64,000 nt of DNA from positions 992,001-1,056,000 of the forward strand of contig JBHYGA010000001.1 of NCBI GenBank assembly GCA_051859245.1. The letters run 5' to 3'. The DNA comes from Gemmatimonadaceae bacterium. Lineage in GTDB: Bacteria > Gemmatimonadota > Gemmatimonadetes > Gemmatimonadales > Gemmatimonadaceae. The position numbers and the translations under genes are program-made. Positions within the stretch are counted from its first letter, which is position 1. Each line of letters starts with the position of its first letter. The notes below the pieces were generated by a model. That model was not told where the DNA came from. It ran no database searches and saw only the letters and a list, made by a program, of their open reading frames with translations. Positions 1 to 27,499 of the stretch are shown one piece after another.

Positions 1-943
1 TCGTATCGAACTGCGCGAGCGTCTTGAGATGCGTGTTGTACACCTCGGCGCCCAGCGGGATGTATCCGGTCTCCGGCACGTACTCAAGCGAGTGTTCCAG
101 ATAGAATCGCACGAAGTCGCGCACCACTGAACGGTTCATGGACTTACGGCTGACATAAATGAGCAGGGGACGCGCCAGCGGCGAATAGGTGCCCGCCTGA
201 ATTGTTTCCGGCGTGGGCTGTACGCAGCCAGTACCAGGATCCACGGCGACACTCTTCAGGCGCGTTTTGTTTTCGGCGTAGTACGCGTAGCCAAAGAAGC
301 CGAGTGCATTGCGATCACCTTCCACGCCTTGCACCAATACGTTGTCGTCTTCACTCGCCGAAAAATCGTCGCGAATGGCGCCAACGCGGCCCATGATGGC
401 CTCGGTGAAATAATCAAACGTTCCGGAGTTCGTGCCCGCGCCGTACAGCTTGATCGGTTCGTTCGGCCACTCGGCGCGCACCTGCGACCAGCTGCTCACC
501 GTGCTACCGGGCTTCCAGATCTGCTCCAGCTCGGCCACCGTCAGACACTCAACAAAGGTGTTGCCGGGATTGACCGCCACGGTCAGTCCATCAATCGCAA
601 TGTTGAACTCGACGTACTCGACGCCGTTTTTTTCGCACAGTTCCCGTTCGCTCTTCTTGATGGGGCGCGATGCATTGCTGATGTCGCGCTCGCCCGCGCA
701 AAACGCCTTAAAGCCACCGCCGGTACCCGATGTCGCAATGGTGACGTTCACCTTCTCCGTGCTCGCGATCCCGAATTCTTCGGCCATCGCCTCGGTAATG
801 GGGTACACGGTGCTGGAACCGTCTACCGACACCGTGTAGCTGGCCGAGCCCGGGCCGCAGGCAACAAGCGTCGCTGCGGAGAGGACACACGCGACCGCGA
901 GTCGAGTCGCGGCCATCGATTGTCGAGCGGAGCGGAAATTCAT
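1..943 (-). CDS. pstS: PstS-family phosphate ABC transporter substrate-binding lipoprotein (PstS2/SphX-like), 3' end outside window
   Basis: Manual translation from ATG at 943: MNFRSARQSMAATRLAVACVLSAATLVAC (lipobox), then VDGSSTVYPITEAMAEEF and GTGGGFKRFC, typical of this SBP subfamily. Absent from the ORF track because it is truncated. Confidence 0.9.
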   Translation of the reverse strand, partial: MNFRSARQSMAATRLAVACVLSAATLVACGPGSASYTVSVDGSSTVYPITEAMAEEFGIASTEKVNVTIATSGTGGGFKAFCAGERDISNASRPIKKSERELCEKNGVEYVEFNIAIDGLTVAVNPGNTFVECLTVAELEQIWKPGSTVSSWSQVRAEWPNEPIKLYGAGTNSGTFDYFTEAIMGRVGAIRDDFSASEDDNVLVQGVEGDRNALGFFGYAYYAENKTRLKSVAVDPGTGCVQPTPETIQAGTYSPLARPLLIYVSRKSMNRSVVRDFVRFYLEHSLEYVPETGYIPLGAEVYNTHLKTLAQFDT

Positions 944-1011
944 GAGAGATCAAAAGATTCCTGTTGAGCGCACGGGCTCCACGCCCGTTGGCTCACACAA
1001 GCCAATCCACA

Positions 1012-1065
1012 AATATCGCCGCCCCGTACCCCGTCGGCCGATTGCTCATGTAACGAACCGGTAAT
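1012..1065 (-). promoter_or_regulatory. Putative Pho box and -10 element upstream of pstS
   Basis: TGTAACGAACCGGTAAT at 1049-1065 (11-bp spaced GTAAC/GTAAT) is 14/17 identical to 12696-12712. Coding-strand GATATT at 1017-1012 is in the same register as at three other sites. Confidence 0.6.
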
Positions 1066-1280
1066 CTCTCCTCGGCAGGGTACATCCCACCAGCCTGAAT
1101 GCGCGCAATTACCACAACTTTCCGACTCGGAGAACATCGGGTCCGTTTGCTGCCGAACGGTTTGTGCGTCCTTTCGATGCGCAGGCTCGACGCCGCGGGC
1201 TTCGACGGTGGTGACGGCCGCGCTATATCTAGCATGCGCCGGCGAGTCACACGACACGCAATCGCGAGGCGACGACCCAC

Positions 1281-3476
1281 TTGGAGAGCACGGACACCAG
1301 CATGATGCCCTATCTCAATCGCGAGCTCAGCTGGCTGGATTTCAACGGTCGGGTGCTGGCCGAGGCTGCTGATTCCCGCGTGCCGCTTCTGGAACGGCTG
1401 AAGTTTCTCGCGATCTTCAGTATGAATCTCGACGAGTTCTATATGGTGCGCGTGGCGGGCCTGCGACGCCGAGTGGCCGCCGGTGCCGGTGTGGAGCCTC
1501 CGGATGCCATGCCGCCGGTCGAGCAGCTCCTGGCCATTAACCAACGCGTGGCGGACCTGCTGGACCAGCGCCGTACACTCTTGCGCGATGAGTTGCTGCC
1601 GGCGCTCTCCCAGCATGGCATCCGCGTCGTCGGGATGAATGATCTGACCGCGTCGGAATGGTCACTCGTGGACCGGTTCTTCGAATCGCAGGTCTTCCCG
1701 GTACTGACGCCCTTGGCCGTCGATCCGGGGCACCCGTTTCCGTACATCTCCAATTTGTCGCTCTCGCTGGCCGTGCAGGTGCGCGATCCGGTCACCGGCG
1801 CCGAGCATTTTGCGCGCGTGAAAGTGCCGCGGTCCTTGTCGCGCTGGGTGCCGATCGGTCGCAAGCACCATTTTGTGCCGCTCGAAGAGGTGATTGGCGC
1901 CAATCTCGGCACACTGTTTCCCGGGATGGAAGTGGTCGGATGGCACACCTTCCGCATCACGCGCTACTCCGATCTTGACCTCGGTCAAATGGAGCAGCCT
2001 GAGGATTTGCTGGCCAGCATTGAGCAGCAGGTGTTTCAGCGTCGGTTCGGCGAAGTGGTGCGACTTGAAGTACAACGCGGCATGCCAGACGATATCCGCG
2101 AGCTGCTGCTGGAAGAGTTGGGCGCAGGTGAGCAGCAGGAGATCGCGCCGCTCACCGTGGAAGACGTGGATATGACGGATGAGTTGCTCGAGCTTGGCGA
2201 CTTCATGACGTTCGCTTCGCTTGATGTGCCGGAACTGCGCGACCCGCCATTCTCACCGCGCGTGCCAGACAAGTTGCGCGATGGACGCTCCATCTTTGAT
2301 GTCATTCGGGAACGCGATGTGCTCGTGCATCATCCGTTCGAGTCGTTCAGTGCCTCGGTCGAGCACTTCCTTGAGTCGGCGGCCGCCGATCCTCAGGTGC
2401 TGGCCATCAAGCTCACGCTCTATCGAACGAGCGGTGACACGGCCATTGTCCGCGCGCTCACGGAAGCGGCACAGCGCGGCAAGCAGGTGGCCGTGTTGAT
2501 CGAACTGCAAGCGCGATTTGATGAGCAGAACAACATCGCCTGGGCGCGCACGCTCGAAAGTTACGGCATTCACGTGGCGTACGGATTACCGGGGTTGAAG
2601 ACGCACGCCAAGACCGTTCTGGTTGTACGACGGGACGCCGACGGCATCCGTCGCTACGTGCACATCGGCACCGGCAACTACAACTCCAAGACGGCGCGCT
2701 TGTACACGGATATCGGGCTGCTCACTTGCAGTCCGTCAATTGGCGCCGATCTGAGTGACCTCTTCAACTCGCTCACCGGCGTCAGTCGTCAGAAGTTCTA
2801 TCGCAAGCTGCTTGTGGCGCCGGCAAACTTGCGCGAACGGACCGTGGAGTTGATCGCGCGTGAAGCGGAGCACGCACGCGCTGGCCGCGGTGGCCGCATC
2901 ATCGCAAAGATGAATGCGCTGGTTGATGCCGGAATTATTGCGTCGCTCTACAGCGCGTCGCAGGCTGGTGTGCAAATCGATCTGATCATTCGCGGCATTT
3001 GCTGCTTGCGTCCGGGCATCAAGGGACTGAGCGAGAATATTCGCGTGCGATCCATCATTGGTCGGTTTCTTGAACACTCGCGCGTGCTGCACGTGGCCAA
3101 CGACGGCCAGCCGGAGTACTACATCGGTTCGGCCGACTGGATGCCGCGTAACCTTGATCGTCGCGTTGAAGTGATGGTGCCAATCGAAGAGCCGTTGTTG
3201 CACCGACAGATTCGCGGCGTGCTCGATGTGTGTCTGCGCGACAATCGCCAGGCCTGGGAGCTGCAGGCCGATGGGACCTATGCGCGTCTGTTCCCCGGTG
3301 GAGAAGCGGAGCGGTCAACGCAGCTACATCTCATGCGCGATCCGTGGGGACTCGATGGTGACGGCAGCGACTCCGAAGTTCACATTCCGGACAGTGAACC
3401 GTCGGCTACCGTGCCGGACGGCGGGCGACTCGGTCGCAAGAGCGGAAAACGGAGCAAGTCCTCGAAGCGGGGGTGA
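1281..3476 (+). CDS. ppk1: Polyphosphate kinase 1
   Basis: NRELSWLDFN, NLDEFYMVRVAGL, HHPFESF, ARFDEQNN, KTHAK, IGTGNYN, RFLEHSR, SADWMPRNLDRRVE. Start could be ATG 1302. Confidence 0.97.
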   Translation: MESTDTSMMPYLNRELSWLDFNGRVLAEAADSRVPLLERLKFLAIFSMNLDEFYMVRVAGLRRRVAAGAGVEPPDAMPPVEQLLAINQRVADLLDQRRTLLRDELLPALSQHGIRVVGMNDLTASEWSLVDRFFESQVFPVLTPLAVDPGHPFPYISNLSLSLAVQVRDPVTGAEHFARVKVPRSLSRWVPIGRKHHFVPLEEVIGANLGTLFPGMEVVGWHTFRITRYSDLDLGQMEQPEDLLASIEQQVFQRRFGEVVRLEVQRGMPDDIRELLLEELGAGEQQEIAPLTVEDVDMTDELLELGDFMTFASLDVPELRDPPFSPRVPDKLRDGRSIFDVIRERDVLVHHPFESFSASVEHFLESAAADPQVLAIKLTLYRTSGDTAIVRALTEAAQRGKQVAVLIELQARFDEQNNIAWARTLESYGIHVAYGLPGLKTHAKTVLVVRRDADGIRRYVHIGTGNYNSKTARLYTDIGLLTCSPSIGADLSDLFNSLTGVSRQKFYRKLLVAPANLRERTVELIAREAEHARAGRGGRIIAKMNALVDAGIIASLYSASQAGVQIDLIIRGICCLRPGIKGLSENIRVRSIIGRFLEHSRVLHVANDGQPEYYIGSADWMPRNLDRRVEVMVPIEEPLLHRQIRGVLDVCLRDNRQAWELQADGTYARLFPGGEAERSTQLHLMRDPWGLDGDGSDSEVHIPDSEPSATVPDGGRLGRKSGKRSKSSKRG

Positions 3477-5060
3477 CTACTCCCCTTCGTCGGCCGACGT
3501 GACCACCACGGTACCATCCGGCGCGACGACTTCGATGGGGTGACCGGCGACCAGCTCCAGCAACTGTCGCTTGCGACTCGCGCCCCACAGCTCGAGTCGC
3601 ACGGTCAGTGCACCCTCGGTTGGGACCGCCTTCACACGAATCGCGCGCTCCGTCCATCGCACTTCGAGATGGTCAACCGCACCCACGTGGCCGCGATCAA
3701 ACCCATCGGCAAAGCGGAGAATCGCCGACAGCTTGACGATGCGATTGCGAAGCACACGATCAAGCTGCGCAAACGCCCGATGCTTTCGCTTGGGCGTGGC
3801 TCCGCGATGGTAACGCGCCACATGCGCAATCGCGATCTGCTCCGCCGGTGTCATGCCCAGCAGTTCGGCGTGTGAAATCAGATGGTACGAATGCTTGTGG
3901 TGATTCTCGTAGTTGATGTGGTAACCCACATCGTGCAGCAGGGCCGCGTCGGCGAGAATCTGCCGATCCACGGCGTTAAGTCGCAGGCGCGGCGCCAGTT
4001 TGTCGAACAACTGAAGGGCGAGCTTGCGCACCTGTTTGGAATGCGGCACTTCGTAGTGACAGCGCTCCGCAAACTCGCGCACCGAGCGTTCACGTGCGTC
4101 GCCCGGATCGGCGATCACCGGCTGCACACGCGCGGATTCAAGCAGCAGTCCTTCCCGAATTCCGTACCCCGACACGAGCAGATCGCGCGGATCGAATCGC
4201 GCCAACACTTCGGCCGCCACGCTGAGACCAGCCACGATGATGTCGGCACGCGCCGGATTCAGTCCCGGCACGGTGGCGCGCTCTTCCGGCGACAACCGCT
4301 GCAGCCAGTCGAGCACATGCTCCAGTTCAACACGCGTAATGCGTGTGCCGTGCGTCGAGCGCGCCGTCACACCGGCCCGCTGCAACACAATGCCGGCAAG
4401 ATTGGTAAACGTGCCGCCGGATCCGATGACCTGTGCACCGCGCCAGTCCTTGACCGGCATGGCTTTGCGTAAGCCATCGCGCACGTGGTCACGCAATGCA
4501 CGCACCGCACGCGGACGTACGTCCGGTGTGAGAAAACGCTCCGTCAGTCGAACCGCGCCAAACGGTAACGATGCCACGCGCTCGATCAAACCATCTTTGG
4601 CAAGCACGAGTTCGAGCGAGCCGCCGCCGATGTCCATGACAAGCGAGCGACCTGAGCCAAGCTCAAAATGTCCGAGCGCACTCCGAAAGCAGAGCAGCGC
4701 CTCTTCTTCACCAGAGAGCACCCGCACCGCAATGCCAGTGTCTTCAAGCACCCGATTGGTAAACTCGGCCGCATTCGACGCGTCGCGAACGGCACTGGTG
4801 GCCACGATTTCAATGCGTTCGGCACTGAGCTGACGCGCCAGCGTGACCATGCGCTGCACCGACGACACACCAATGTCGATGGCCGCGCTGCTCAACGCTC
4901 CCGTTGCCTCAAGCCCTTCGCCCAGTCGTGGCATGGCCTTCATTTCGTCGACCACCCGAATCTGACCGGTGGGCGAGACGTCGGCCACGATTTGTCGGAT
5001 GGAGTTCGACCCGATGTCGATAGCGGCAATGCGTTGGTGCGGCGCGACGGGTTCAGTCAT
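3477..5060 (-). CDS. ppx: Exopolyphosphatase Ppx/GppA with C-terminal HD-like domain
   Basis: AAIDIGSNSIR, ATSAVRDASN, DIGGGSLE, GSGGT, GIREG, LLHDVG. Abuts the ppk1 stop with zero gap; start overlaps the arsA stop (ATGA). Confidence 0.95.
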   Translation of the reverse strand: MTEPVAPHQRIAAIDIGSNSIRQIVADVSPTGQIRVVDEMKAMPRLGEGLEATGALSSAAIDIGVSSVQRMVTLARQLSAERIEIVATSAVRDASNAAEFTNRVLEDTGIAVRVLSGEEEALLCFRSALGHFELGSGRSLVMDIGGGSLELVLAKDGLIERVASLPFGAVRLTERFLTPDVRPRAVRALRDHVRDGLRKAMPVKDWRGAQVIGSGGTFTNLAGIVLQRAGVTARSTHGTRITRVELEHVLDWLQRLSPEERATVPGLNPARADIIVAGLSVAAEVLARFDPRDLLVSGYGIREGLLLESARVQPVIADPGDARERSVREFAERCHYEVPHSKQVRKLALQLFDKLAPRLRLNAVDRQILADAALLHDVGYHINYENHHKHSYHLISHAELLGMTPAEQIAIAHVARYHRGATPKRKHRAFAQLDRVLRNRIVKLSAILRFADGFDRGHVGAVDHLEVRWTERAIRVKAVPTEGALTVRLELWGASRKRQLLELVAGHPIEVVAPDGTVVVTSADEGE

Positions 5061-6949
5061 GCATGCAAAGCTAGCGCACCGGGGGAGGGGGGAGGAGCAC
5101 CCGCGTCACCACCAGGCGTATCACTCTTCGCCACATCCGACTCGCCCACCAGTGCCTGCCACGGCAGCCCCCAGGTGCGCGTGCTGGCACGTGCCACCCG
5201 CGCAAGCGGACCCGCTTCTTGATCAGCGCGCGCCCGCAGTAGCGGATGCTGCACGTTCGTCTGTGACAAAAGTCCGTTCACCACCCAGCCGTACGGTGTG
5301 ATTCCGGCGCGCGCGAGATCTTCCACCAACCGTTCCGCCTCGGCCACCGGAGTAAACTCTGCAAGCGTGACCACCAGAACACGCGTAAACGCCGGGTCGC
5401 GAAGTCGCGGCAGCAACGCGGCGACCTCGGGAGGCACCGCGCCCGTGCTTTTGGCCACCTCGCGATGATACGCCTGGGCCGCATCGAGCAACAGAATCGT
5501 GTGCCCGGTAGGCGCCGTATCAAGTACGACAAACGCATTCTGCGCGTCGGCGAGTATGCGTGCGAAGGCGCGAAACACGGCGATCTCTTCGGTACACGGC
5601 GAACGCAGATCTTCCGCGAGCAGCTCACGTTCGTGTGCGTCGAGTGGACCAGCGGCGCGCATGACTTCATCCGTATACGCGGCGATCTCTGCGGCCGCAT
5701 CGATGCGCGATACGCGCAGTGCGGGAGACGAGTTTGCAAACGCAAAATCCACACCCGCAGGATCGGTGGTCGACAAGTGTACCGGCAAACCGCGTTCCGC
5801 GAGCGCGAGTGCAATGCGACGCGCGACGGTTGTTTTCCCCACACCACCTTTGCCCATGGTGAGAATCGCACCGTGCGATTCGCACGCGAGTGACGCGATC
5901 AAATCGTCAAACGAGGCGAGTGAGGCGTGTGCTGGGTCCGGTGCCTCGAGCGCTGGTCCGACTGTTGCGTGATCCTGCCCACTCGTCGCCGCATCAATCG
6001 CCGCGTCAATCGATTCACCCGACGCGAGTGCTCGCAGCGCGTCGAGTCCCGTCAGATCGCCAGTCAGCATTGGAACGGTGAGGCGCGGCAACGTGGCGAT
6101 GTCCGCAGGCATCTGTTCGAGTGCGCTACGCTGCCGAGCGTACCACGCGCGTGTGACCGCGTCGACTTCGGTTGCATCCACGCTCTTTCCGTTCGCATCG
6201 CTTCGCTCCGGCAACACCGCATTCAGCACGAGTCGCTGGTGCGCCAACCCGATGGCGCGCAGTTCAACGCTGGCACGCGCCGCCTCGAGCAGTGGCGCGT
6301 GGTCGGCGCGCGATACAATCACCACGGTGGTTAGCGCGCCATCAGACAGTGCCCGCACCGCCTCCGCATATCGTGCGCGTTGTTGTTCAAGTCCGGCGAG
6401 TGGTCCAAGACAGCTTGCGCCATTCTCCGCCGATCCAAGAAATCCAGTCCACGCTGCGGGCAGCGCGAGCAATCGCAGTGTGTGTCCGGTGGGCGCGGTG
6501 TCGAACACCACGCGATCAAACTGCGCGAGCAGGGCGGGATCGGTGAGCAATGCAGTGAACTCATCAAACGCCGCGATCTCCACCGTGCATGCGCCGGAGA
6601 GCTGTTCTTCCATTTGCTGCAGCGCCGATGCCGGCAACACGCCGCGATAGGGTGTCACGATGCGTTCGCGGTACGCGGCGGCGGCGGCCACTGGATCGAT
6701 GTCCAGCAAGCTCAGCGCGGGAAGCCCTGCGAGCGGGGTCGGGACCGACTTGTCGACGCGGCCGAACAGATCGCCGAGGTTCGACGCGGGGTCCGTGCTG
6801 ACCAGCAGCGTGCGTTCACCGCGTTCTGCGAGCGCTACGGCTATCGCACAGGCGGTGGTGGTTTTGCCAACGCCCCCCTTGCCGGTGAAAAACGAAAAGC
6901 GCGTGGTGAGTTCGAGTCGAGTGGCGAAATCGCCGAGGGCGGAGTTCAC
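5057..6949 (-). CDS. arsA: Arsenical pump-driving ATPase ArsA
   Basis: Two GKGGVGKT P-loops, two DTAPTGH signatures, metalloid ligands SGACT, ASCLGP and RSPCTEE. Confidence 0.95.
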   Translation of the reverse strand: MNSALGDFATRLELTTRFSFFTGKGGVGKTTTACAIAVALAERGERTLLVSTDPASNLGDLFGRVDKSVPTPLAGLPALSLLDIDPVAAAAAYRERIVTPYRGVLPASALQQMEEQLSGACTVEIAAFDEFTALLTDPALLAQFDRVVFDTAPTGHTLRLLALPAAWTGFLGSAENGASCLGPLAGLEQQRARYAEAVRALSDGALTTVVIVSRADHAPLLEAARASVELRAIGLAHQRLVLNAVLPERSDANGKSVDATEVDAVTRAWYARQRSALEQMPADIATLPRLTVPMLTGDLTGLDALRALASGESIDAAIDAATSGQDHATVGPALEAPDPAHASLASFDDLIASLACESHGAILTMGKGGVGKTTVARRIALALAERGLPVHLSTTDPAGVDFAFANSSPALRVSRIDAAAEIAAYTDEVMRAAGPLDAHERELLAEDLRSPCTEEIAVFRAFARILADAQNAFVVLDTAPTGHTILLLDAAQAYHREVAKSTGAVPPEVAALLPRLRDPAFTRVLVVTLAEFTPVAEAERLVEDLARAGITPYGWVVNGLLSQTNVQHPLLRARADQEAGPLARVARASTRTWGLPWQALVGESDVAKSDTPGGDAGAPPPSPGALALHA

Positions 6950-7362
6950 GCAATGACCTTGTGTTGTGCAGTGCCGAGTGCGTGAAGCAGCTCAGCGCGC
7001 GTGGCGTGCCGTCCGGTCACCAGGAGCGCGCCATTCACCCACGTGGCGGGCAAGGCCTCAACGCCGCCCTCCTGCAACAGCGTGCGGGCCGGAGCGAAGG
7101 CCACGAACGCGCCGGCATCGGTGCCCAGATTGTGGCGGACCACATCAACGCCCTGCGCGGCGAGCCATCGCAGATCTCGCGCTGCGTCAAGCAGCGACGT
7201 GTCGACGGCGGGTCCGCAGACGCCTGTTTCGCAACACATCGCCGGGTCGAACACGCGGACCGTTCCCTTGAGCATGCGCTCGGTGCCGACCGCGTCATCG
7301 GTGGCCGCGTTGGATGCGTTCGGGGCAGGATCGGACAGTTGCGGCAGTGATCGTGCGGCCAT
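6946..7362 (-). CDS. arsD: Arsenite metallochaperone ArsD
   Basis: FDPAMCCETGVCGP (CCxxxxC), RHNL, LP.TWVNG. GGAG RBS precedes ATG 7362; 4-nt overlap with arsA. Confidence 0.92.
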   Translation of the reverse strand: MAARSLPQLSDPAPNASNAATDDAVGTERMLKGTVRVFDPAMCCETGVCGPAVDTSLLDAARDLRWLAAQGVDVVRHNLGTDAGAFVAFAPARTLLQEGGVEALPATWVNGALLVTGRHATRAELLHALGTAQHKVIA

Positions 7363-7398
7363 GTTACGCTCCAGGAGTTGCATTGAACTTGCTTAGCG

Positions 7399-7427
7399 AT
7401 ATTATATCTGTATATGGAGAATATATG
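7399..7427. promoter_or_regulatory. Divergent arsD/arsR promoter with probable ArsR operator
   Basis: AT-rich patch in GC-rich DNA; perfect TATAAT on the minus strand at 7406-7401; imperfect inverted repeat TATAT-N13-ATATA at 7403-7425 overlapping the arsR start. Confidence 0.5.
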
Positions 7428-7823
7428 CGCTTAACCGAATATGCAACGCCCATTGACGCACAGACCGTCGCTGCCGACGCCGCCCAGTGTGCGGATCGAG
7501 CGGCTGGCCTCGCCGACCCCACGCGCGTGCGCATTCTCAACTTGCTCGCCACTGGCGAGCTTTGCGTGTGCGACTTGGTGTCGGTGCTCGAACTGCCGCA
7601 GCCGCTGGTCTCCCGCCATCTGGCGTATTTGCGGCGGAGCGGTTGGGTTGAGGCCACCCGCGGCCCACGATTGGCGCACTACCGGCTCTTGCCGGCTGCC
7701 GACGCGTCGCACGAGGCGCTGCTGGCCTGGATTCGCGACGCGCTTCCGTCCATGACGGGACTACAGGCGGAGCGCGAAGCCGGCGCGATTGCCTGCGAGG
7801 CGCGGCGGTCGAGTCCGTGCTGA
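7425..7823 (+). CDS. arsR: ArsR/SmtB-family arsenite-responsive repressor
   Basis: LADPTRVRILNLL, ELCVCDL metal-binding box, SRHLAYLR HTH; GGAGA RBS. Confidence 0.92.
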   Translation: MRLTEYATPIDAQTVAADAAQCADRAAGLADPTRVRILNLLATGELCVCDLVSVLELPQPLVSRHLAYLRRSGWVEATRGPRLAHYRLLPAADASHEALLAWIRDALPSMTGLQAEREAGAIACEARRSSPC

Positions 7824-7875
7824 GCGTTGCAAAGCTCCGTTCGTTTGCATCGCGCACACATTCAGCCCCAGGCGC

Positions 7876-8631
7876 ATGATCAGCGTTGTTCTGTTGTCCG
7901 ATGTGCACGCCAATATTGAAGCGCTCGACGCTGTGCTCGCTCACGCACGTGAACACGCACCGCACGCTGCGCGGTATCATCTGGGGGACCTGGTTGGCTA
8001 CTCAGCCAATCCCAACGAGGTCATCGCACGCGTTGACGCCGAACACATTGCGGGCGTTGCCGGCAACTACGATAGCACCGTCGCGCACGGCTACAAGCAT
8101 TGCGGCTGTCGTTCAGAAAATGCGCGGCAGGAAGCACTGGCGCATGAGAGTTATGCGTGGACGCTTGCGAATACGAGCCAGGAGAACAAAGCCCGACTCG
8201 CAGCCCTTCCGTTTCGCCTTGACGTGCGTCCACTCGGTGGACACACACCGGGTCCGCGTTTTGTGCTGCTGCATGCGCACAGCACAAGCAACCTGATTTA
8301 TGTGACCGAAGATCGCACCGATGATTTCCTGCGTAAACTCGGCGAGTCGGTGGATGCGAAGTCGGGCGATCTTGTCGCCTTCGGCCACACGCACAAGCCG
8401 TGGCATCGTGTGGTTGACGGCGTGCACTTTGTAAACACGGGGAGTGTTGGTCGGCCAAAGGATCACGATCCGCGCGCTGGTTATGTGCGCGTGGATGTGG
8501 CGGCCGATGGATCAATCGCCGTGCATGTCGTGCGCGTTGCGTACGATGTGGAGCAGGCTGCGGAGAAAGTGGTTGCGGCGGGGCTGCCAACGGAGTTCGC
8601 AGATTTTCTGCGGACGGGCGGGCGGGGGTAG
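7876..8631 (+). CDS. Calcineurin-like metallophosphoesterase (YfcE/PPP-like), arsenic-cassette associated
   Basis: SDVHAN, LGDLVGY, GNYD, FGHTH, NTGSVG motifs; extra HCGC insert. Confidence 0.85.
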   Translation: MISVVLLSDVHANIEALDAVLAHAREHAPHAARYHLGDLVGYSANPNEVIARVDAEHIAGVAGNYDSTVAHGYKHCGCRSENARQEALAHESYAWTLANTSQENKARLAALPFRLDVRPLGGHTPGPRFVLLHAHSTSNLIYVTEDRTDDFLRKLGESVDAKSGDLVAFGHTHKPWHRVVDGVHFVNTGSVGRPKDHDPRAGYVRVDVAADGSIAVHVVRVAYDVEQAAEKVVAAGLPTEFADFLRTGGRG

Positions 8632-8637
8632 GAGTTG

Positions 8638-8883
8638 GTTGCGGTTCCCGATTCGGTCATTCGGCCCAGTAGCAGGAGCCCAGGGCCATCCGGCCATTCG
8701 GCCTCGCAGTTTCGTAGAGCGGCACAAAGCGATGATCTGCTTTCTCGCATCGCAATCTCTGGCGGGACCCCGAAAAGCGCAGCGCCGCTTATGAGTGCGG
8801 CCTTTCGAAACGATCGAGGCCGAAACGCCAAACGGCCTTGGGCTCCTGCTACTGGGCCGAATAACCGAATCGGGAACTGCAAC
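8638..8883. repeat. Palindromic intergenic element copy 1 (MITE/REP-like; ~77-bp inverted arms)
   Basis: 8638-8714 GTTGCGGTTCCCGATTCGGTCATTCGGCCCAGTAGCAGGAGCCC... is the near reverse complement of 8806-8883; second copy at 15690-15921. Confidence 0.85.
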
Positions 8884-10004
8884 TACTGTTTCGGCGCCCC
8901 CAACTCCCTCGCCAACGTCGCCAACATCCGGTCGGCCAGCGGTGCCGGAATCGGTTCGTAACCAAGCTCACGCGCGATCTGATCACCACTGTGCAGCGCC
9001 CACTCGGCGAACCGTTGCACAGACTGCGTTTTTGTCGGGCCAATATGATCAGGCGCGACCAGCATCCAGGTGAACGACGAAATCGGATAGGCACGATCGC
9101 CAGGTGCATTCACAATTGAGAGCCGCAGGTCGAGCGGTTCATTGGCGATCGCGAGTGCACTGGTTGCGGCGGCGGCCATTTCGAATGCTGCCGGCGCAAC
9201 GAAGTTGCCCGCGGCGTTTCGCACCAGCGCGACTGGCAAACGGTTTTGTCGTGCGTACGACGATTCCACATATCCGATCGCGCCAAGCGTTTGCTTGACC
9301 TGTCCGGCTACTCCTTCATTGCCCTGACCGCCTGTGCCAACGGGCCACTGGACATCCTTGCCGCGACCAGGACCGGCGGCCCAATCCGCGCTCACGGCGA
9401 AGAGATAGTCAGAGAAAATGTACGACGTTCCACTGCCATCGGATCGGCGCACCACCTGCACGTCGCGATCGGGCAGCACTGCATCTGGATTGAGCGCGGC
9501 AAGTCGCGGATCATTCCATCGTGTTAACCGACCGAGAAAAACTTCGGCCAGAATCTCTGAAGACACACGGAGCGGTCGTTCGAGTTCTGGAAGGTTGTAC
9601 GTGATCGCAACCGCGCCGAGCACGGTTGGAATGTGCACCACCCGCGCGGTGGGGACGCGTGCAATTTCCTCGTTGCTCAATGGCGCATCGCTGGCCGCAA
9701 AGTCAACGGTGCCCGCGATGAGCCGATCAATGCCACCGCTCGATCCGATAGACTCATAGTTCACGCGCACGCCGGTTTGTGTGGCATACGTGTTGAACCA
9801 GCGTGCGTACAGCGGATACGGAAACGTGGCGCCCGCGCCGAGCAGGTCGACGTCACGAGGGGAGACGGGACTCGAATCAGTGCTTACAGCACCGTCACGC
9901 GTCGCGCCGTCACGCGACGCGCTATCACACCCCGTTGCCGCACCCAGCAACGCGACCACGGCAAGGCGGAGCCATGCCGCCGCACGCCCGTGGCGACGAT
10001 TCAT
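8883..10004 (-). CDS. pstS: Phosphate ABC transporter substrate-binding protein PstS (E. coli-like subfamily), lipoprotein
   Basis: GAGATFPYPLY, IGSSGGI, DFAASDAPL, RSDGSGTS, GNEGVAG, YPISSFTW; lipobox ATGC. Confidence 0.95.
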   Translation of the reverse strand: MNRRHGRAAAWLRLAVVALLGAATGCDSASRDGATRDGAVSTDSSPVSPRDVDLLGAGATFPYPLYARWFNTYATQTGVRVNYESIGSSGGIDRLIAGTVDFAASDAPLSNEEIARVPTARVVHIPTVLGAVAITYNLPELERPLRVSSEILAEVFLGRLTRWNDPRLAALNPDAVLPDRDVQVVRRSDGSGTSYIFSDYLFAVSADWAAGPGRGKDVQWPVGTGGQGNEGVAGQVKQTLGAIGYVESSYARQNRLPVALVRNAAGNFVAPAAFEMAAAATSALAIANEPLDLRLSIVNAPGDRAYPISSFTWMLVAPDHIGPTKTQSVQRFAEWALHSGDQIARELGYEPIPAPLADRMLATLARELGAPKQ

Positions 10005-10009
10005 GAATG

Positions 10010-10768
10010 TCACAGCTCGTTTGAAAAACTCATGAGCTTGAACGTACCGTTGCGCTCGACAATGTGCGACGTGAGCCACAAGGTATCGGTCACTGACTTG
10101 CCGCGGCGGATGATGCCGCATGGACCATGCACGCGGTTCTGACCGAGCACCCTCGGTTCGCGACTGCAGGCCGTGCCAGCTACCGTCGAGTCCGCACCGC
10201 GTGCGCGCTCGAGCGCGCGCGCTAGTCCGCGTCCGCCGTTGTTCGCGAGCAGCAGCCATGAGACGTGCGGCTGCATGCCGTTGGCCGGTTCATCGCTCTC
10301 GGGAAAGTAGAGATACGCAAACTCCGCCTTGCTGAGCACCAACGGCGAGAGCGCGAGCGAATCGCTGCGTACGAGCGTGCTCCAATAGCGACGCAGTAGC
10401 GCATCCACCGATGTCGCACCATCCGCGAGTGCTGTGACGGCCACACCACCGGCTTCGGCCTGAAAGCGACGCAAAGCCTCTTCCGGCGGATAGATGCTGT
10501 CGATGACGTATCCCGGTGTTTTGAGCAACGAGTCGCGCGAAGCGATCAGCGCTCCGTCCGACTGCCATTCTACCATTGCGGGATCAATACCGGCGGGAAT
10601 CGGTTGACGCACGGCGCCGGAATCAAGCGGGGTCGTGTCGTTGGCCATGGCCGCCGCTCGGCGCGCGTCGTCGCTCGAATTCCCGCAGGCGGCCAGCGTG
10701 ATCAAGGACAACGCTACGAACGCACGCACGGTGTGTCGCGCTCGCGTTTCAAAGTGATGCACGTGCAT
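10010..10768 (-). CDS. Hypothetical lipoprotein
   Basis: Lipobox LITLAAC; ends 5 nt before pstS; no recognisable catalytic motif. Confidence 0.7.
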   Translation of the reverse strand: MHVHHFETRARHTVRAFVALSLITLAACGNSSDDARRAAAMANDTTPLDSGAVRQPIPAGIDPAMVEWQSDGALIASRDSLLKTPGYVIDSIYPPEEALRRFQAEAGGVAVTALADGATSVDALLRRYWSTLVRSDSLALSPLVLSKAEFAYLYFPESDEPANGMQPHVSWLLLANNGGRGLARALERARGADSTVAGTACSREPRVLGQNRVHGPCGIIRRGKSVTDTLWLTSHIVERNGTFKLMSFSNEL

Positions 10769-16942: not shown

Positions 16943-18349
16943 TCAGGCGATGTCAGATTCCGGTGGCGCGTTCGGAAAGAGCGCCGCGATCGTGGTGCCG
17001 GCACCCAGCACACTCTCCGCGCGCACACGCCCGCCGTGTGCCTCGACTAAATGTCGTACAATGGCCAGGCCGAGTCCGGTACCACCGGCATCGCGGGCAC
17101 GTCCTGGATCGGCTCGATAGAAGCGCTCGAAAATTCTCGGCAGATGTGCTTCGGCAATGCCGGATCCCGTGTCACGGACACCGAGCCACACACCCTCTTC
17201 TGAACGCTCTGAGAAGATTGTCACGCGGCCCTGTGCCGTGTGTCGCAGGGCATTCTGTGTGAGGTTCGACAACACCTGTCGAACCGCTGTTGGATCCGCG
17301 TAGACACGACCGGCCTGCTCGGCCAGCTGCGCTTCGATGCATACGCCTTTGCTTGCCGCCTGATCTTGCAGTGGCGCGAGGATCTCGTTGGTCACTGCGC
17401 GCAGCTCAAGATCGCCGGGTTTGGGCAACCAGCCGCCAGACTCAATGCGCGACAGATCGAGCAGATCATCAACAATGCGCTGCATGCGGCGCACGTTGGA
17501 TGCCGTCATGCCCACAAACTGCCGTCGCAAATCGGGCGGCAGCTCTTCGTCGGCCAGCGTTTCCACGAATCCGGTGATTACCGTGAGCGGTGTGCGCAGC
17601 TCATGCGACACGTTCGCCACAAAATCGCGGCGCACGGCCTCAAGTTTACGAAATGGCGTAAGGTCATACAGCGCGAGAATCGCGCCGCCATCGGGCAACG
17701 GCCGTGCCGTGAGTGACAGCGTGCGATCATCCACGCGCACTTCCGATGGTGTGGCCACTTCACCACGCAAGACATCGGCGAGTGCGTCGCGCATGGTGCG
17801 ATCGCGCGGCAGGTAGTCGGCCGGGAAGGGCACCGGTTCCCGCAGTCGCAGAATCTGTCGAGCCGTTTCATTGATACGTACAACACGCTGACGCGCATCA
17901 ACCGCAATCACACCTTCATTCAACGACTCGGTGAGTGCGACGAGCAAGGCTTCTTCCGCCCGCAGCGCGCCCATGCGCGACGTGGATTGTTCGGCGAGTC
18001 TGCGCAGCGCTTCGGCCAGTTCGCCAACCTCTCCGGACCCGCGCAGACTTGGGCGACGCGTCATATCCCCATCGGCAAGCGCACGCGCTACGCTGCGCAA
18101 GTCTTCAACGGGGCGGGCAATGGAACGCGCGACGAACACACTTCCTGCCATGCCAAGTGCGAGCGCGGCCAAGCCGGTGAGCCAGAGGTTGCGCTGCACC
18201 TCTGATTCAATCGCGGAGACGCGTGCGTCCTCAACGCCAGCGGCGCGCAGCCGAATGCTGACGGAGCGCTGTGTGACGGTTCCCACCACGAGAATCGCGA
18301 CGGCAAGTCCGACCGTCGCGGAGAGGACCAAACGCTGCGTCAGTTTCAC
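16943..18349 (-). CDS. phoR: Sensor histidine kinase PhoR-like (TM-HAMP-PAS-HisKA-HATPase)
   Basis: RRDFVANVSHELRTPLT H-box, NL..NA, DTGSGI, FERFYR, GGTGLGL; follows phoB in a Pho cluster. Start uncertain (18349-18391). Confidence 0.88.
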   Translation of the reverse strand: MKLTQRLVLSATVGLAVAILVVGTVTQRSVSIRLRAAGVEDARVSAIESEVQRNLWLTGLAALALGMAGSVFVARSIARPVEDLRSVARALADGDMTRRPSLRGSGEVGELAEALRRLAEQSTSRMGALRAEEALLVALTESLNEGVIAVDARQRVVRINETARQILRLREPVPFPADYLPRDRTMRDALADVLRGEVATPSEVRVDDRTLSLTARPLPDGGAILALYDLTPFRKLEAVRRDFVANVSHELRTPLTVITGFVETLADEELPPDLRRQFVGMTASNVRRMQRIVDDLLDLSRIESGGWLPKPGDLELRAVTNEILAPLQDQAASKGVCIEAQLAEQAGRVYADPTAVRQVLSNLTQNALRHTAQGRVTIFSERSEEGVWLGVRDTGSGIAEAHLPRIFERFYRADPGRARDAGGTGLGLAIVRHLVEAHGGRVRAESVLGAGTTIAALFPNAPPESDIA

Positions 18350-18431
18350 ACGCACATAGTGTGTAAAACTGACGCCAGTGGCAACACACAAATCCGCAAC
18401 GGTACGATGACCAGCGGGTTGTCAGCGGCCA

Positions 18432-19154
18432 CTACAGGCCGCGCGATTGTGACGAACGCAGGCGGTAGCCGAAACCGCGCACCGTTTCGATCAGGTCGCC
18501 TGCGGCGCCAAGCTTGGAGCGCAGACGCTGCACGTGCATGTCGACGGTACGCGTTTGAATATCGGGCGCCGCTTCCCACACGGTTTCGAGCAGATGACCA
18601 CGCGCCTGCACCCGTCCGCGGCGTTCGGCCAGCGTGATGAGCAGTTTGTATTCGGTGGGCGTCAGCTCAACGGCCTGATCGTCTACGTGCACCGTGAGCG
18701 CGGAGCGGTCGATTTTCATCGGACCGATCGCGAGCACGTCCGAGCTCGACGTTTTGGGCTGCGCAAGACGACGCAGAATGGCCGCCACGCGGAGCACCAG
18801 CTCCTGCGGCGAGAACGGCTTGGTGAGATAGTCGTCAGCACCCAGCGACAGGCCGCGAATGCGATCCACTTCTTCGCGACGCGCGGTGAGCATCAACACG
18901 GCCACTTCCCGGGTTGATTCCTCCGAGCGCAGAATCTCGAGCACTTCAAACCCAGACATGCCGGGGAGCATCAGGTCGAGCACCACGAGCGCTGGACGTT
19001 CGCGACGGGCAATATCGATGGCATCCTGACCGGACGCCGCCGTGGCTACGCGATATCCTGCTTTGGCGAGGTGATAGGCCACCAGCGCAACAATTTCCGG
19101 CTCGTCGTCGACCACCAACACGCGATCCGTGACCGCTGGCGCGACGGCGTTCAT
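18432..19154 (-). CDS. phoB: OmpR-family response regulator PhoB-like
   Basis: VVDDE, LDLMLPG, GADDYLTKPFSPQEL, wHTH RTVDMHVQRLRSKL, ETVRGFGY. Confidence 0.88.
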   Translation of the reverse strand: MNAVAPAVTDRVLVVDDEPEIVALVAYHLAKAGYRVATAASGQDAIDIARRERPALVVLDLMLPGMSGFEVLEILRSEESTREVAVLMLTARREEVDRIRGLSLGADDYLTKPFSPQELVLRVAAILRRLAQPKTSSSDVLAIGPMKIDRSALTVHVDDQAVELTPTEYKLLITLAERRGRVQARGHLLETVWEAAPDIQTRTVDMHVQRLRSKLGAAGDLIETVRGFGYRLRSSQSRGL

Positions 19155-24696: not shown

Positions 24697-25565
24697 CGAT
24701 GCCGTTTCGCACGGCCACCATGCCGGTGCCGAACGAAGGACCGGGTGCATTCGAAGCGATGCGCGCCGCGGAATCCATTCGCCATCGCCTGGGGAGCGCG
24801 TTTCACACGCCGGCGTGTGGCATTGTGCTCGGTTCGGGGCTGGGCGGGCTTGCAGCACAGGTACAGAATGCCACGTTCATTCCGTTCGCAGATATTCCGG
24901 GCTTTCCGAGTGCAACGGTGGCGGGCCACGCGGGGCAGCTGGTTCTGGGAACACTCGAGAATGTGCCCGTAGCCATGTTTGCGGGTCGACTGCACATGTA
25001 CGAAGGACACGCACCGGCTACGGCCGGATTTCCGGTGCGTGTCCTGCACGCGCTGGGTGCGCGTGTGTACATCGCGTCAAATGCTGCGGGTGGCGTGAAC
25101 CGCACGTACGAGCCTGGTGATCTCATGCTGATTGCGGATCACATCAACATGATGTTCAAGAATCCGCTCCACGGACCGTTGCAAAAGGGCGACGAACGGT
25201 TCCCGGATATGGCCGATCCGTACGCCAGGTCATTGCGAGCGATCATGCATAAAGTGGCGCATGATCGTGGCATTGATTTGAAGGAAGGCGTGTACATGGG
25301 GCTCGTTGGGCCCACCTACGAAACGCCGGCCGAAGTCCGAATGATTGAAAAGTTTGGCGCTGATGCCGTGGGCATGAGCACGGTGCCCGAGGTGATTGTG
25401 GCCACGGCGCTGGGCATGCAGTGCGTGGCGGTCTCGCTGATCACCAACAAGGCGGCCGGCATCAGTCTCGTGCCGCTGGCGCACGATGAGGTGCTGCAGG
25501 TAGGCCGTGAAGCGGCGGTGAAGTTCGAGCAGCTCATCCGCGGGTTTGTGGCGACGCTGGGCTAA
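24693..25565 (+). CDS. punA: Purine nucleoside phosphorylase (trimeric PunA/XapA type)
   Basis: VLGSGLG, GHAG, GRLHMYEG, NAAGG, GPTYETPAE, VGMSTVPE, TN.AAG. Confidence 0.93.
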   Translation: MTMPFRTATMPVPNEGPGAFEAMRAAESIRHRLGSAFHTPACGIVLGSGLGGLAAQVQNATFIPFADIPGFPSATVAGHAGQLVLGTLENVPVAMFAGRLHMYEGHAPATAGFPVRVLHALGARVYIASNAAGGVNRTYEPGDLMLIADHINMMFKNPLHGPLQKGDERFPDMADPYARSLRAIMHKVAHDRGIDLKEGVYMGLVGPTYETPAEVRMIEKFGADAVGMSTVPEVIVATALGMQCVAVSLITNKAAGISLVPLAHDEVLQVGREAAVKFEQLIRGFVATLG

Positions 25566-25576
25566 GGTTCCTGGCC

Positions 25577-25606
25577 TTGACAGATCAACGAAAGTTGATG
25601 TATGCT
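25577..25606 (+). promoter_or_regulatory. sigma70 promoter with ArsR operator 1; probably leaderless arsR2 mRNA
   Basis: TTGACA (25577)-18 nt-TATGCT (25601); perfect palindrome ATCAAC-GAAA-GTTGAT (25584-25599) in the spacer; ATG 5 nt after the -10, no RBS. Confidence 0.8.
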
Positions 25607-25611
25607 TCCAT

Positions 25612-25986
25612 ATGCACACCGCCGCCACCAAGATTGACCCGGCAACATTGGTTCGTCAGTTCCACGCGCTCTCGGATCCAACGCGACTGGCCATCATGGG
25701 CTCGCTTCGGAGCGGGGAGTGCTGCGTGTGCGACCTGCAAAGCTCGCTAGGCGCCGCTCAGTCCCGGCTGTCGTTTCACCTGCGGGTGCTGAAAGACGCG
25801 GGACTGATCGTTGACCGAAAAGACGGACGCTGGAGCTACTACCAGCTGGTGCCTGGCGCGGTGGAGTCGCTGAGCGACGGGCTGCTTCTGCTGGGGAGTC
25901 CGCGGGCTTCGTCGGGGCGCGAGCTGCCGCAGTTGACGGTGATCGGCGAAGGCGCGGAGGCTGATGCCTCAGGGTGCTGCGGCTGA
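25612..25986 (+). CDS. arsR: ArsR/SmtB-family repressor (second)
   Basis: ALSDPTRL, ECCVCDL, QSRLSFHL..L; C-terminal GCCG. Confidence 0.92.
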   Translation: MHTAATKIDPATLVRQFHALSDPTRLAIMGSLRSGECCVCDLQSSLGAAQSRLSFHLRVLKDAGLIVDRKDGRWSYYQLVPGAVESLSDGLLLLGSPRASSGRELPQLTVIGEGAEADASGCCG

Positions 25987-26079
25987 GCGGGCTTCAGACC
26001 AGCCAGCGCCTCTTTTTCATCTTCACCCTCCACACATTCGGATACGTGTTCTGAAGTTCGCTTTCTTGTGGTCCAACGC

Positions 26080-26095
26080 ATCAACAAATTTTGAT
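26080..26095. promoter_or_regulatory. ArsR operator 2 in front of the arsM RBS
   Basis: ATCAA-CAAATT-TTGAT, the same ATCAA-N6-TTGAT as 25584-25599. Confidence 0.75.
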
Positions 26096-26105
26096 CGGAG
26101 AGATT

Positions 26106-27008
26106 ATGACCATCCAGAAGACACTCCCCCTCGCTGACGCCGGCACGATCACCGAAACCGTTCGGCAGCGTTATAGCGCCGCGGCGAGCCAAGCGGCCGC
26201 CGGTCAGCGTGCGTCCTGTTGCAGTCCAGTAGACCTCACGCTGCCGGTTGCTGTCGCCGAACGCGCGTCATGCTGTGGTTCGAACGAGTCAGCGGCATCC
26301 GGTTGCGGCGACCCGATTACGGACAACCTGTACGACGGTGCAGAAACAGCGGGTGTGCCTGCCGGCGCCGTGCTCGCATCGCTCGGCTGCGGCAATCCCA
26401 CGGCACTGGCCGAGCTCAAGGCGGGTGAGGTTGTGCTCGATCTAGGCTCGGGCGGTGGTATTGATGTGCTGCTCTCCGCCCGGCGCGTTGGCCCCACGGG
26501 CAAAGCCTATGGCCTCGATATGACCGACGAGATGCTCGCGCTTGCACGAAAGAATCAGGCGGAGTCAGGGCTTACGAACGTGGAGTTCCTGAAAGGACAC
26601 ATCGAATCAGTCCCACTTCCGGATGCGTCGGTCGACGTGATTATTTCGAACTGCGTGATCAATCTGTCGTCCGACAAACGCACGGTACTGACAGAAGCAT
26701 TCCGTGTGCTGAAGCCCGGCGGCCGGTTGGCAATCAGTGATGTGCTGTCGCGTGGCGAAATCCCCGACGAGATTCGCAGCAGCATGGAAGCCTGGGTTGG
26801 CTGCATTGCCGGTGCGATGGACGAATGCGAGTTTCTTGATCTGGTGCGCGAAGTTGGATTTGTGGATGCGAGCGTTGAACCCACGCGCGAGTATGCACCA
26901 AATGACGCCAAGATGTTTCTCGAGATGGCCGGTGTGAATACCGACGATCTGTTGACTTGTGTCGAAGGCCGTTTCATTTCCGGTTTTGTACGCGCAATCA
27001 AGCCATGA
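26106..27008 (+). CDS. arsM: Arsenite S-adenosylmethionine methyltransferase
   Basis: SLGCGNP, VLDLGSGGGID, SNCVINLS, WVGCIAGA; Cys-rich N-terminus. Confidence 0.95.
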   Translation: MTIQKTLPLADAGTITETVRQRYSAAASQAAAGQRASCCSPVDLTLPVAVAERASCCGSNESAASGCGDPITDNLYDGAETAGVPAGAVLASLGCGNPTALAELKAGEVVLDLGSGGGIDVLLSARRVGPTGKAYGLDMTDEMLALARKNQAESGLTNVEFLKGHIESVPLPDASVDVIISNCVINLSSDKRTVLTEAFRVLKPGGRLAISDVLSRGEIPDEIRSSMEAWVGCIAGAMDECEFLDLVREVGFVDASVEPTREYAPNDAKMFLEMAGVNTDDLLTCVEGRFISGFVRAIKP

Positions 27009-27499
27009 GTGCACACGTTCGCGCAGCGACACCAGATGATCTCCAAGGCATTTGCGCGTTGTTAATCAGCGCGCAGTTGCCCACAGCTGGTGTGGCCGAA
27101 CATCTCGAGTCGTTTCTGGTGGCGGAGCAGGGTGATGCGGCGAGTCGCGATGCTGCGAATCACGATGCTGCGAGTGCCGATGCTGCGAGTCGCGATGTCC
27201 TGCTAGCTACGATCGGCATGGAACGCTACGGTGACGCGGCGCTGCTGCGGTCCATGGCGGTGGCGGAATCAGCGCGCGGCAGTGGCCTTGGTACCCAGCT
27301 CGTGCACGCGCTCGAAGCGAAGGCTGTACATCATGACGTGCGAACGCTGGTGTTGCTGACCACCACGGCCGAGCGCTGGTTCGCAGCACTCGGTTACGAG
27401 TACATCACCCGAGAGGATGTGCCGGACGCGTTGTTGGACTCCGCAGAGTTTCGTGGTGCGCGTCCAGCGAGTGCGATCGTGATGAGGAAGCGGATGTAG
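27005..27499 (+). CDS. arsN2: Arsenic-resistance GNAT N-acetyltransferase ArsN2-like
   Basis: ALLRSMAV, RGSGLG, LLTTTAE.WF, SAEF....P.SA..M.K; ATGA overlap with arsM. Confidence 0.85.
   Translation: MSAHVRAATPDDLQGICALLISAQLPTAGVAEHLESFLVAEQGDAASRDAANHDAASADAASRDVLLATIGMERYGDAALLRSMAVAESARGSGLGTQLVHALEAKAVHHDVRTLVLLTTTAERWFAALGYEYITREDVPDALLDSAEFRGARPASAIVMRKRM
27134..27197 (+). repeat. In-frame 15-bp tandem repeat x4 (DAASR/DAANH/DAASA/DAASR)
   Basis: GATGCGGCGAGTCGC GATGCTGCGAATCAC GATGCTGCGAGTGCC GATGCTGCGAGTCGC GATG. Confidence 0.9.

Follow-up and report, generated by a model that had tools for sequence, protein, structure and literature searches.

A divergent ars cassette without a recognised arsenite pump, lodged beside ppx in the phosphate island of a Gemmatimonadaceae bacterium

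ArsD and ArsA are accessories of an arsenite pump, ArsB or Acr3, in operons of the R773 type (arsRDAB or arsRD-A-acr3). Here we describe a locus in which arsD and arsA run directly into ppx, the gene of an exopolyphosphatase. It lies in a 64,000-nt stretch of a Gemmatimonadaceae genome (hereafter the window, to which all positions refer unless a contig or locus is named; the genome, an assembly of 4.7 Mb in 11 contigs that is 99.87% complete, is called G000). Gene identities were obtained from Pfam and NCBIfam profile scans of the open reading frames (ORFs). The locus shares with R773-type operons ArsR, ArsD and a two-domain ArsA with their diagnostic motifs, the adjacency and coupling of arsD and arsA, and a divergent ArsR-type promoter region; it differs in that no ArsB, Acr3 or ArsP was found in operon or genome, that ppx follows arsA, and that ArsD carries an N-terminal extension of ∼30 residues. 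We consider it probable that this is a divergent, ArsR-controlled cassette minus acr3 within a phosphate-starvation (Pho) island, and that its coupling to ppx is lineage-specific rather than a conserved circuit.

Arsenic islands that combine aio and ars genes with pst and pho genes are on record (Li et al. 2013, as cited in 10.1101/870428), and arsenate-detoxification genes are reported to respond to limitation of inorganic phosphate (Pi) in cyanobacteria (PMC11665274). The locus resembles the former in linking arsenic detoxification genes to genes of phosphate uptake and regulation; those islands, however, pair aio with pst and phoBR, whereas in G000 it is a native Pho island that houses the ars genes, at ppk1/ppx. 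A polyphosphate-dependent tolerance of Cu and Cd is reported from acidophiles, in which Ppx-driven release of Pi is combined with efflux of metal-phosphate (e.g. PMC5859850). The same logic, with a toxic ion stimulating polyphosphate hydrolysis, is conceivable here, but in that system cations are exported with Pi through Pit/Pho84, and no link to arsenite or to a transcriptional fusion with ars genes was found. A literature search on arsA or arsenic together with exopolyphosphatase or ppx returned genome surveys only, with no arsA-ppx operon or junction described.

The three genes arsD (arsenite metallochaperone; 6946..7362), arsA (two-domain arsenite-stimulated ATPase; 5057..6949) and ppx (3477..5060) all lie on the minus strand, in overlapping frames with no terminator between them. 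As read from the sequence, the end of arsD (...GCG TGA) shares the four nucleotides GTGA (6949-6946) with the start of arsA (GTG A..), and the end of arsA (...GCA TGA) shares ATGA (5060-5057) with the start of ppx (ATG A..); an earlier note on this DNA, made without database searches, had claimed both overlaps and was right. It was equally right that ppx meets the polyphosphate kinase 1 gene ppk1 (1281..3476, plus strand) head-on with zero gap, the two stop codons occupying 3479-3477 and 3474-3476. The corresponding gap in relatives is roughly 20-110 nt, and in one genome of another genus (G118) it holds a whole ars cassette. The kinase was identified by the profile scans (TIGR03705, 836 bits; four PPK Pfam domains). 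The phosphatase is a Ppx/GppA-family protein with an HD-type domain III (PF02541, 200 bits; PF21447, 101 bits) that scored below the cut-off of the curated model TIGR03706 (266.9 against 307) and far below the cut-offs of the GppA and Ppx equivalog models. It is single-copy in G000, and orthologues paired with ppk1 occurred in 39 of 41 relatives (the Ppx and car1 orthologue counts given here include two unpublished genomes, G021 and G434, on which nothing specific said here depends); this conserved pairing favours the assignment as Ppx over GppA.

The signals around the junction are compatible with a common transcript. A terminator scan of 3000-9000 returned three terminator-like sites, against 4.6 in shuffled sequence, with none at the arsA-ppx junction, and RNA structure at that junction was nothing unusual (z-scores +0.5 to +1.05). 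There is no spacer left in G000 for a separate ppx promoter, and no intergenic promoter region of the type present in the nearest relative, G002, survives. Because both a spacer and a terminator-like hairpin are missing, read-through into ppx, or translational coupling, from an ArsR-controlled arsD promoter is plausible, and we regard such read-through as likely in G000.

The repressor gene arsR (7425..7823, plus strand) is divergent from arsD, and the 62-bp A+T-rich spacer between them (7363..7424) would be their control region, with a -10-like TATAAT and an ATATTC..GAATAT-like dyad. The TATAAT that the earlier note took for a promoter beside arsR is indeed present on the minus strand at 7406-7401, but a two-hexamer sigma-70 scan of 3000-9000 gave no sites, and thus no good -35 accompanies it, on a consensus that may not be that of the host lineage. 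The box is kept in two sister species as TACTAT and TATTAT, and the control region forms a conserved block across all three species. Translation of arsD probably starts at 7362 (the ORF is open to 7383, and the ArsD domain begins at 7275), with a GGAG 9 nt upstream and an N-terminal peptide conserved in the three species.

ArsA and ArsD show no degeneration. ArsA exceeded the curated cut-off (TIGR04291, 699.6 bits against 650), and an alignment with eight other ArsA proteins showed that it retains, in G000 as in the two further carriers described below (G005 and G013), two P-loops (GKGGVGKT), two DTAPTGH motifs and three conserved cysteines, which we take to be the metalloid ligands Cys113, Cys172 and Cys422 in R773 numbering. 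ArsD (NF033727, 97.4 and 97.6 in two scans against a cut-off of 90) carries a CCxTGVC-type motif, AMCCETGVCGP, presumably equivalent to the N-terminal Cys12-Cys13-Cys18 type, and its functional motifs, too, are retained in G005 and G013. ArsR has an HTH_5-type domain above its cut-off (NF033788, 70.8 against 55) and a CVC within ELCVCDL, which we assume to be the As(III) site of the helix that precedes the helix-turn-helix. The earlier note suspected that a low-complexity ArsA tail was read-through over an insertion junction; the last 5-6 arsA codons are in fact native ppx leader sequence, although the tail is only ∼10 residues longer than usual ArsA C-termini. The ∼30-residue extension of ArsD (7276-7362, minus strand) has a variable, low-complexity linker, while G000, G005 and G013 agree in its opening residues, M/V-x-R-R-S-L-P-Q.

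Comparison with relatives identified the cassette as an insert. The island order pstS-ppk1> <ppx-[phoU or car1]-pstS-fn3-TonB-dependent receptor was found in the loci of 16 relatives, and in most members of the genus ppx follows pstS(CAB)-phoU co-directionally or stands directly after pstS, which answers the question raised in the earlier note as to whether pstS is normally adjacent to ppx: ppx is natively a Pho-island gene. Homology between G000 and G002 is interrupted from 15 nt upstream of the ppx ATG to 2 nt ahead of the ATG of car1, the metallophosphoesterase gene discussed below; between these points lie 2798 bp in G000 and 130 bp in G002. Given this difference and the order kept in relatives, the cassette is best described as an insert in a conserved island. 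A search for a recent recombination tract gave no signal: over 1-16000, sliding nucleotide identity between G000 and G002 stays at ∼70–90% and does not change abruptly where the cassette begins and ends. The Ppx and Ppk1 proteins of the pair are 97% and 95% identical, at a nucleotide identity of only ∼80–88%.

The cassette (arsR/arsD-arsA at ppx) is present in only three of the 15 genomes of the genus, G000, G005 and G013, and is lacking from G002 and 11 others. The adjacency of arsA and ppx is therefore not unique to G000; a unique adjacency without a phenotype was among the findings that the earlier note had named as refuting its proposal. ArsA was found in six of the 14 other genus genomes and in none of 26 sampled genomes of other genera; the four carriers besides G005 and G013 have unrelated ArsA lineages at other sites, with acr3 after arsA only in G002. 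The three ppx-linked ArsA proteins form a clade (SH-aLRT 100; stem 0.71, tips 0.42–0.65; in the G005 row, ORF extension had added about 100 spurious residues at the N-terminus), and the shape of this clade, G000 against G005 plus G013, agrees with the deepest split in the tree of Ppx+Ppk1. Ratios of ArsA to Ppx+Ppk1 distances for the same species pairs were about 4.3 and 4.8. The matching topology and similar ratios fit one old acquisition followed by losses, and a single old acquisition in the genus is what the trees indicate. Both G002 and G006 keep car1 alone beside ppx, which looks like a cassette remnant. The suggestion in the earlier note of a recent promoter capture thus applies to the lineage-specific 4-nt overlap but not to the cassette itself, which is old and belongs to a long-branched clade of three ArsA.

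One further arsD-arsA pair in the genus was encountered in G010 (contig C4), where ArsA nests among those of Pirellulaceae and the next gene encodes a sortilin/BNR protein, not a pump; G010 has no Acr3, and the pair was either transferred laterally or belongs to a contaminant of the bin. The window also has a sortilin/BNR gene similar to that of G010, at 40214-43447.

The spacer between arsA and ppx distinguishes G000 from the other two carriers. It measures 83 nt in G005 and 88 nt in G013, and it has become an overlap of 4 nt in G000 alone. Both spacers carry CACTGGCG-N∼20-TCATGCnnGCATGA and neither has a hairpin that would block read-through. The same element stands upstream of ppx in the cassette-free G004 and G006 and is degenerate in G007. 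Its second part, TCATGCnnGCATGA, is a 14-bp palindrome ∼30–45 nt upstream of ppx in four species of the genus (L019:11785-11798, L020:7914-7927, L039:9610-9623 and L038:7947-7960), with CACTGGCG about 20 nt earlier. In the loci of relatives this palindrome is confined to the region upstream of ppx, and in G000 and G002 that region has no recognisable copy. The palindrome was also considered as a regulon-wide motif and rejected as such, the 4.7-Mb G000 genome having no exact match and 11 sites with one mismatch; it may be an operator or promoter element specific to ppx. As the palindrome in the spacers is common to cassette-free species, ppx evidently keeps its own upstream element in G005 and G013. 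Outside the genus, no Ppx homologue was found within 6 kb of ArsA at any of 80 loci drawn from all GTDB species or of 19 loci from a 400-genome sample of the phylum. The sister spacers and these 99 loci together show the arsA-ppx overlap to be specific to the G000 lineage.

The pump is missing from more than the window. A profile search of the whole G000 genome found no Acr3 (TIGR00832), ArsB (PF02040), SBF (PF01758) or ArsP (PF03773), the major facilitator superfamily (MFS) exporters ArsK and ArsJ not having been searched for, and the best tblastn match to any of four Acr3 proteins from the genus had an E of 0.06. At the place where G008 and G014 have acr3, beside an aminotransferase gene, G000 has an AHSA1-domain gene instead (contig C4, ∼717 kb). 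The statement in the earlier note that arsB and acr3 are missing from the 64 kb can thus be extended to the genome, as it had proposed to check; its statement that the window lacks arsC has to be qualified by the reductase candidate described below. Canonical ArsC candidates outside the window, a PF03960 match on C4 (34.5 bits) and LMWPc matches at C1:1.707 Mb and on C9, were rejected as ars genes, their neighbours being unrelated (Sua5, metH, a dicarboxylate symporter).

The closest ArsD, ArsA and ArsR sequences outside the genus come from G326, a member of another genus of the family, with identities of 62% for ArsD and 56–60% for ArsA. Its cassette has the same genes in the same divergent layout, car1<-acr3<-arsR / arsD->arsA, but retains acr3 between arsR and car1 and is not beside ppx. 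Judged against this layout, the phrase "instead of an efflux pump" in the earlier note is right in that the pump is absent, and the locus is better read as one from which acr3 was lost. In G260 and G413 the order is arsR-arsM-arsN2-acr3-car1-arsD-arsA. Among 110 other genomes of the family, Acr3 was found in no more than 29, and many clusters there consist of arsR-arsM-(arsN2)-car1 without acr3; given the rarity of Acr3 and the number of permease-free clusters, methylation-based handling of arsenic seems to be common in the family. An orphan arsDA also has precedent: 5 of 24 E. coli-type (cluster-1) arsA genes are listed outside transporter operons, and three of those genomes have a transporter elsewhere (Castillo and Saier, PMC2963123). 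In G000, ArsD and ArsA could serve a permease yet to be recognised, hand As(III) over to ArsM, buffer As(III), or be in slow decay.

The gene on the other side of the cassette, car1 (7876..8631, plus strand), begins 52 nt downstream of arsR and encodes a Metallophos_2 protein (PF12850, 69.9 bits) with a calcineurin-like metallophosphoesterase fold (nearest solved structure 3rqz, E 1.7e-12). Car1 of Rufibacter tibetensis is reported to be an As(V) reductase of the metallophosphoesterase fold in which Cys74 and Cys76 are essential, and Car1-like genes are reported to follow arsR in ars operons (Shen et al. 2024, as described in PMC12124457). The protein encoded here agrees with Car1 in its Metallophos_2 fold, in a Cys-x-Cys pair at residues 76/78 against 74/76, and in the position of its gene directly downstream of arsR in ars clusters, a likeness drawn from motif and context. 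The pair is part of an HCGC motif (residues 75-78 in the G000 protein) that is invariant in all 27 aligned orthologues. Similar ars-linked metallophosphoesterases have been called uncharacterised in Mucilaginibacter (PMC10652896) and Deinococcus indicus (PMC9807832).

Of 110 other genomes of the family, 57 have an orthologue of the car1-like gene, whose product is 55–65% identical. Twenty family loci were sampled by similarity, and in 16 of them ars genes (arsR, arsM, arsN2 or acr3) lie within 5 kb, as they do at L151 and L153; the remaining four have no ars neighbour, two of them being cut by contig ends. Typical clusters read arsR-arsM-(arsN2)-(acr3)-metallophosphoesterase, with the car1-like gene usually last, and no canonical arsC turned up next to those ars genes of the family that were examined. 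The product of 7876-8631 is thus probably a Car1-type arsenate reductase and, if this call is right, the cassette holds an arsenate reductase that the earlier note missed.

A second ars cluster, arsR-arsM-arsN2, is found 18 kb from arsRDA (25546..27499, plus strand; arsR 25546-25986, arsM 26091-27008, arsN2 26957-27499) and has no car1, the last gene of such clusters in relatives. All three products exceeded their curated cut-offs (arsR, NF033788, 96.3 against 55; ArsM, NF008823, 343.7 against 263; ArsN2, NF040501, 136.3 against 125), and this is the only ArsM-grade match in the genome.

Intersecting the family-wide positions of car1, Ppx and Acr3 showed that ars cassettes also occur at ppk1/ppx outside the genus, in other arrangements. 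G118 (L170, C3:40548-51282) has ppk1-> <-car1<-arsR acr3-> <-ppx, a cassette convergent with both ppk1 and ppx, for which reason co-transcription of ars and polyphosphate genes is impossible there. G449 (L190, C139:1-7994) has arsR->acr3->car1->(0.9 kb)->ppk1-> <-ppx, where any coupling would be to the kinase gene ppk1 and would raise synthesis rather than hydrolysis. A second genome of the G118 genus, G047, has no ars cassette at ppk1/ppx, and in G102 and G457 acr3 and car1 lie 36–39 kb from ppx on the same contig. Since the events in the three genera differ in layout, they are probably independent, and the differing orientations speak against a single regulatory logic. From the recurrence we would argue that the linkage of ars to polyphosphate and Pho genes is not pure chance, and that it reflects either an island tolerant of insertion or selection for co-location; the linkage is real and unexplained.

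Putting these results together, we propose that arsR with the car1-like reductase gene on one side and arsD with arsA on the other would be under ArsR control, and that the acr3 permease gene was probably lost from a cassette of the type still carried by G326. The cassette appears to have lodged just upstream of ppx in a phosphate-starvation island comprising pstS, ppk1/ppx, a second pstS, phosphatases, a TonB receptor and a PhoBR-like system, and the arsA-ppx spacer would then have shrunk to the 4-nt overlap of G000. On this architecture, ppx would be the last gene of an arsenite-derepressed arsD-arsA transcript and is perhaps translationally coupled to it. Arsenic handling in G000 would probably consist of Car1-type reduction and ArsM methylation, with ArsD and ArsA as putative As(III) binders that lack a known permease partner. 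Because the sister species keep the ppx element, G002 lacks the cassette and orientations differ in other genera, the coupling is read as lineage-specific and not as conserved. The central proposal of the earlier note, an arsenic-triggered ppx, accordingly fares unevenly: read-through is plausible in G000, but a dedicated, conserved switch from arsenic to polyphosphate is not supported by the relatives.

Several observations weigh against this account. An intact, motif-perfect ArsD and ArsA without any known permease in the genome are left unexplained by it. An ancestral cassette requires a number of losses, as the locus tree does not unite the three carriers in a clade (approximately unbiased test, p 2e-38) and at least 5–6 losses follow from this; repeated gain at the same slot is the alternative. 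An internal ppx promoter could be present within the 3' end of arsA, and membership of the metallophosphoesterase in the Car1 group is read from motif and context only. Lastly, ars cassettes within 4 kb of ppk1/ppx in three genera compare with roughly 0.2 expected among 57 genomes (a rough arithmetic in which kin are not independent), and a purely incidental placement does not explain this recurrence, which hints at selection for a linkage of ars and polyphosphate genes.

Among other explanations, the one that survives best, though we would still call it doubtful, is that ArsD and ArsA continue to energise export by way of a permease for arsenite or methylarsenite that has escaped recognition and is encoded at another site, or pass As(III) to ArsM, the adjacency of ppx being irrelevant. 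It would account for the retention of all catalytic and metalloid-binding motifs over a long divergence, and arsM is only 18 kb away. In G005 and G013 acr3 (87.6% identical between the two) is located elsewhere in the genome, so that partnership in trans would be the norm in the clade; three of the five orphan cluster-1 arsA genes tabulated in PMC2963123 likewise belong to genomes with a transporter at another site. A permease of this kind has to be reconciled with a genome, 99.87% complete, in which no Acr3, ArsB or ArsP was detected and the MFS-type ArsK and ArsJ were not searched for.

Less credible, and in our judgement unlikely, is the selected circuit that the earlier note envisaged, in which derepression by arsenite raises Ppx, polyphosphate is hydrolysed, the released Pi competes with arsenate and damps Pst uptake, and head-on transcription lowers synthesis by ppk1. 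The junctions in G000, with their 4-nt overlaps, no spacer or terminator and zero-gap convergence with ppk1, speak for such a circuit. On both sides of the deepest split in the genus, in three species altogether, the cassette has moreover stayed by ppx, the sister spacers contain no hairpin to stop a transcript, and two more genera have ars cassettes at ppk1/ppx; the reported response of cyanobacterial arsenate-detoxification genes to Pi limitation (PMC11665274) and the arsenic islands described with pst/pho genes (10.1101/870428) are in the same spirit. However, the overlap occurs only in G000 while G005 and G013 keep the conserved palindrome of ppx, the cassette is missing from the nearest relative and from 11 more genomes of the genus, and the G118 cassette is convergent with both polyphosphate genes and that of G449 co-directional with ppk1. 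Ppx was near ArsA at none of the 99 other loci, and the literature search produced no arsA-ppx operon.

More speculative again is a broader version in which selection repeatedly brings ArsR-controlled genes to ppk1/ppx, as three genera with three arrangements might suggest; in G000, where this would have gone as far as a fusion of arsA to ppx without an arsenite permease in the genome, arsenite sensing would then directly drive polyphosphate hydrolysis, and ArsD and ArsA would act as a cytosolic As(III) buffer feeding ArsM and not a pump. We rate this as quite improbable; if true, it would mean that arsenic is dealt with without a pump, by Car1 reduction and methylation coupled to the release of Pi. 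That arsD and arsA are functionless leftovers decaying after the loss of acr3, with only their promoter mattering now, if anything, is very improbable: no permease (Acr3, ArsB or ArsP) was found in the genome, the branches of the ppx-linked ArsA are long (about 4.3–4.8 times the Ppx+Ppk1 distances) and most of the genus has lost the cassette, but frames are intact with all diagnostic motifs kept in three species, TIGR04291 and NF033727 scores exceed curated cut-offs, and two of the three carrier species do have acr3.

The lineage-specific reading, to which we return, places the cassette in an island of phosphate-related genes. On the far side of ppk1 lies a gene for a pstS-family phosphate-binding protein (2..943, minus strand, its 3' end off the window; TIGR02136, 284 bits against a cut-off of 206.6), which adjoins ppk1 in genus relatives too. 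Beyond car1 follow pstS (8883..10259, minus strand; TIGR00975, 345.7 against 205), the gene that in relatives heads the series pstS(CAB)-phoU->ppx, a gene for an fn3 protein with a weak match to a purple-acid-phosphatase N-domain (10846-12609, minus strand) and one for a TonB-dependent receptor (12709-15648, minus strand). A PhoR/PhoB-like two-component system (16943..19154, minus strand) had PnpS/PhoR and PhoB as its best models, both below the equivalog cut-offs (TIGR02154, 243 against 296), and is followed by a gene for a 1200-residue double nucleotidase/phosphoesterase (19686-23288). Together with an adenosine deaminase gene, this pair and the nucleotidase (all within 16943-24696) extend the phosphate-scavenging character of the island. 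Farther along, the window encodes a 1559-residue protein combining a Ser/Thr kinase, an adenylate/guanylate cyclase, AAA_16 and TPR (54176-58855), which is adjoined by the gene of an extracytoplasmic function (ECF) sigma factor (58863-59450).

What is new here is an ars cassette of a known kind, its permease lost, fused to ppx inside a Pho island. If ppx is simply read through, this is an ordinary case of a cassette lodging in an island. A motif-perfect ArsD and ArsA joined to ppx without a known permease nevertheless raise the question of what ArsA does without a pump, and ars cassettes at ppk1/ppx in three genera offer a concrete, testable way into a connection that has long been suspected between arsenate stress and phosphate or polyphosphate metabolism. 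For the family as a whole, the range of the Car1-type reductase is extended, as it appears here as the usual terminal gene of ars clusters across a bacterial family.

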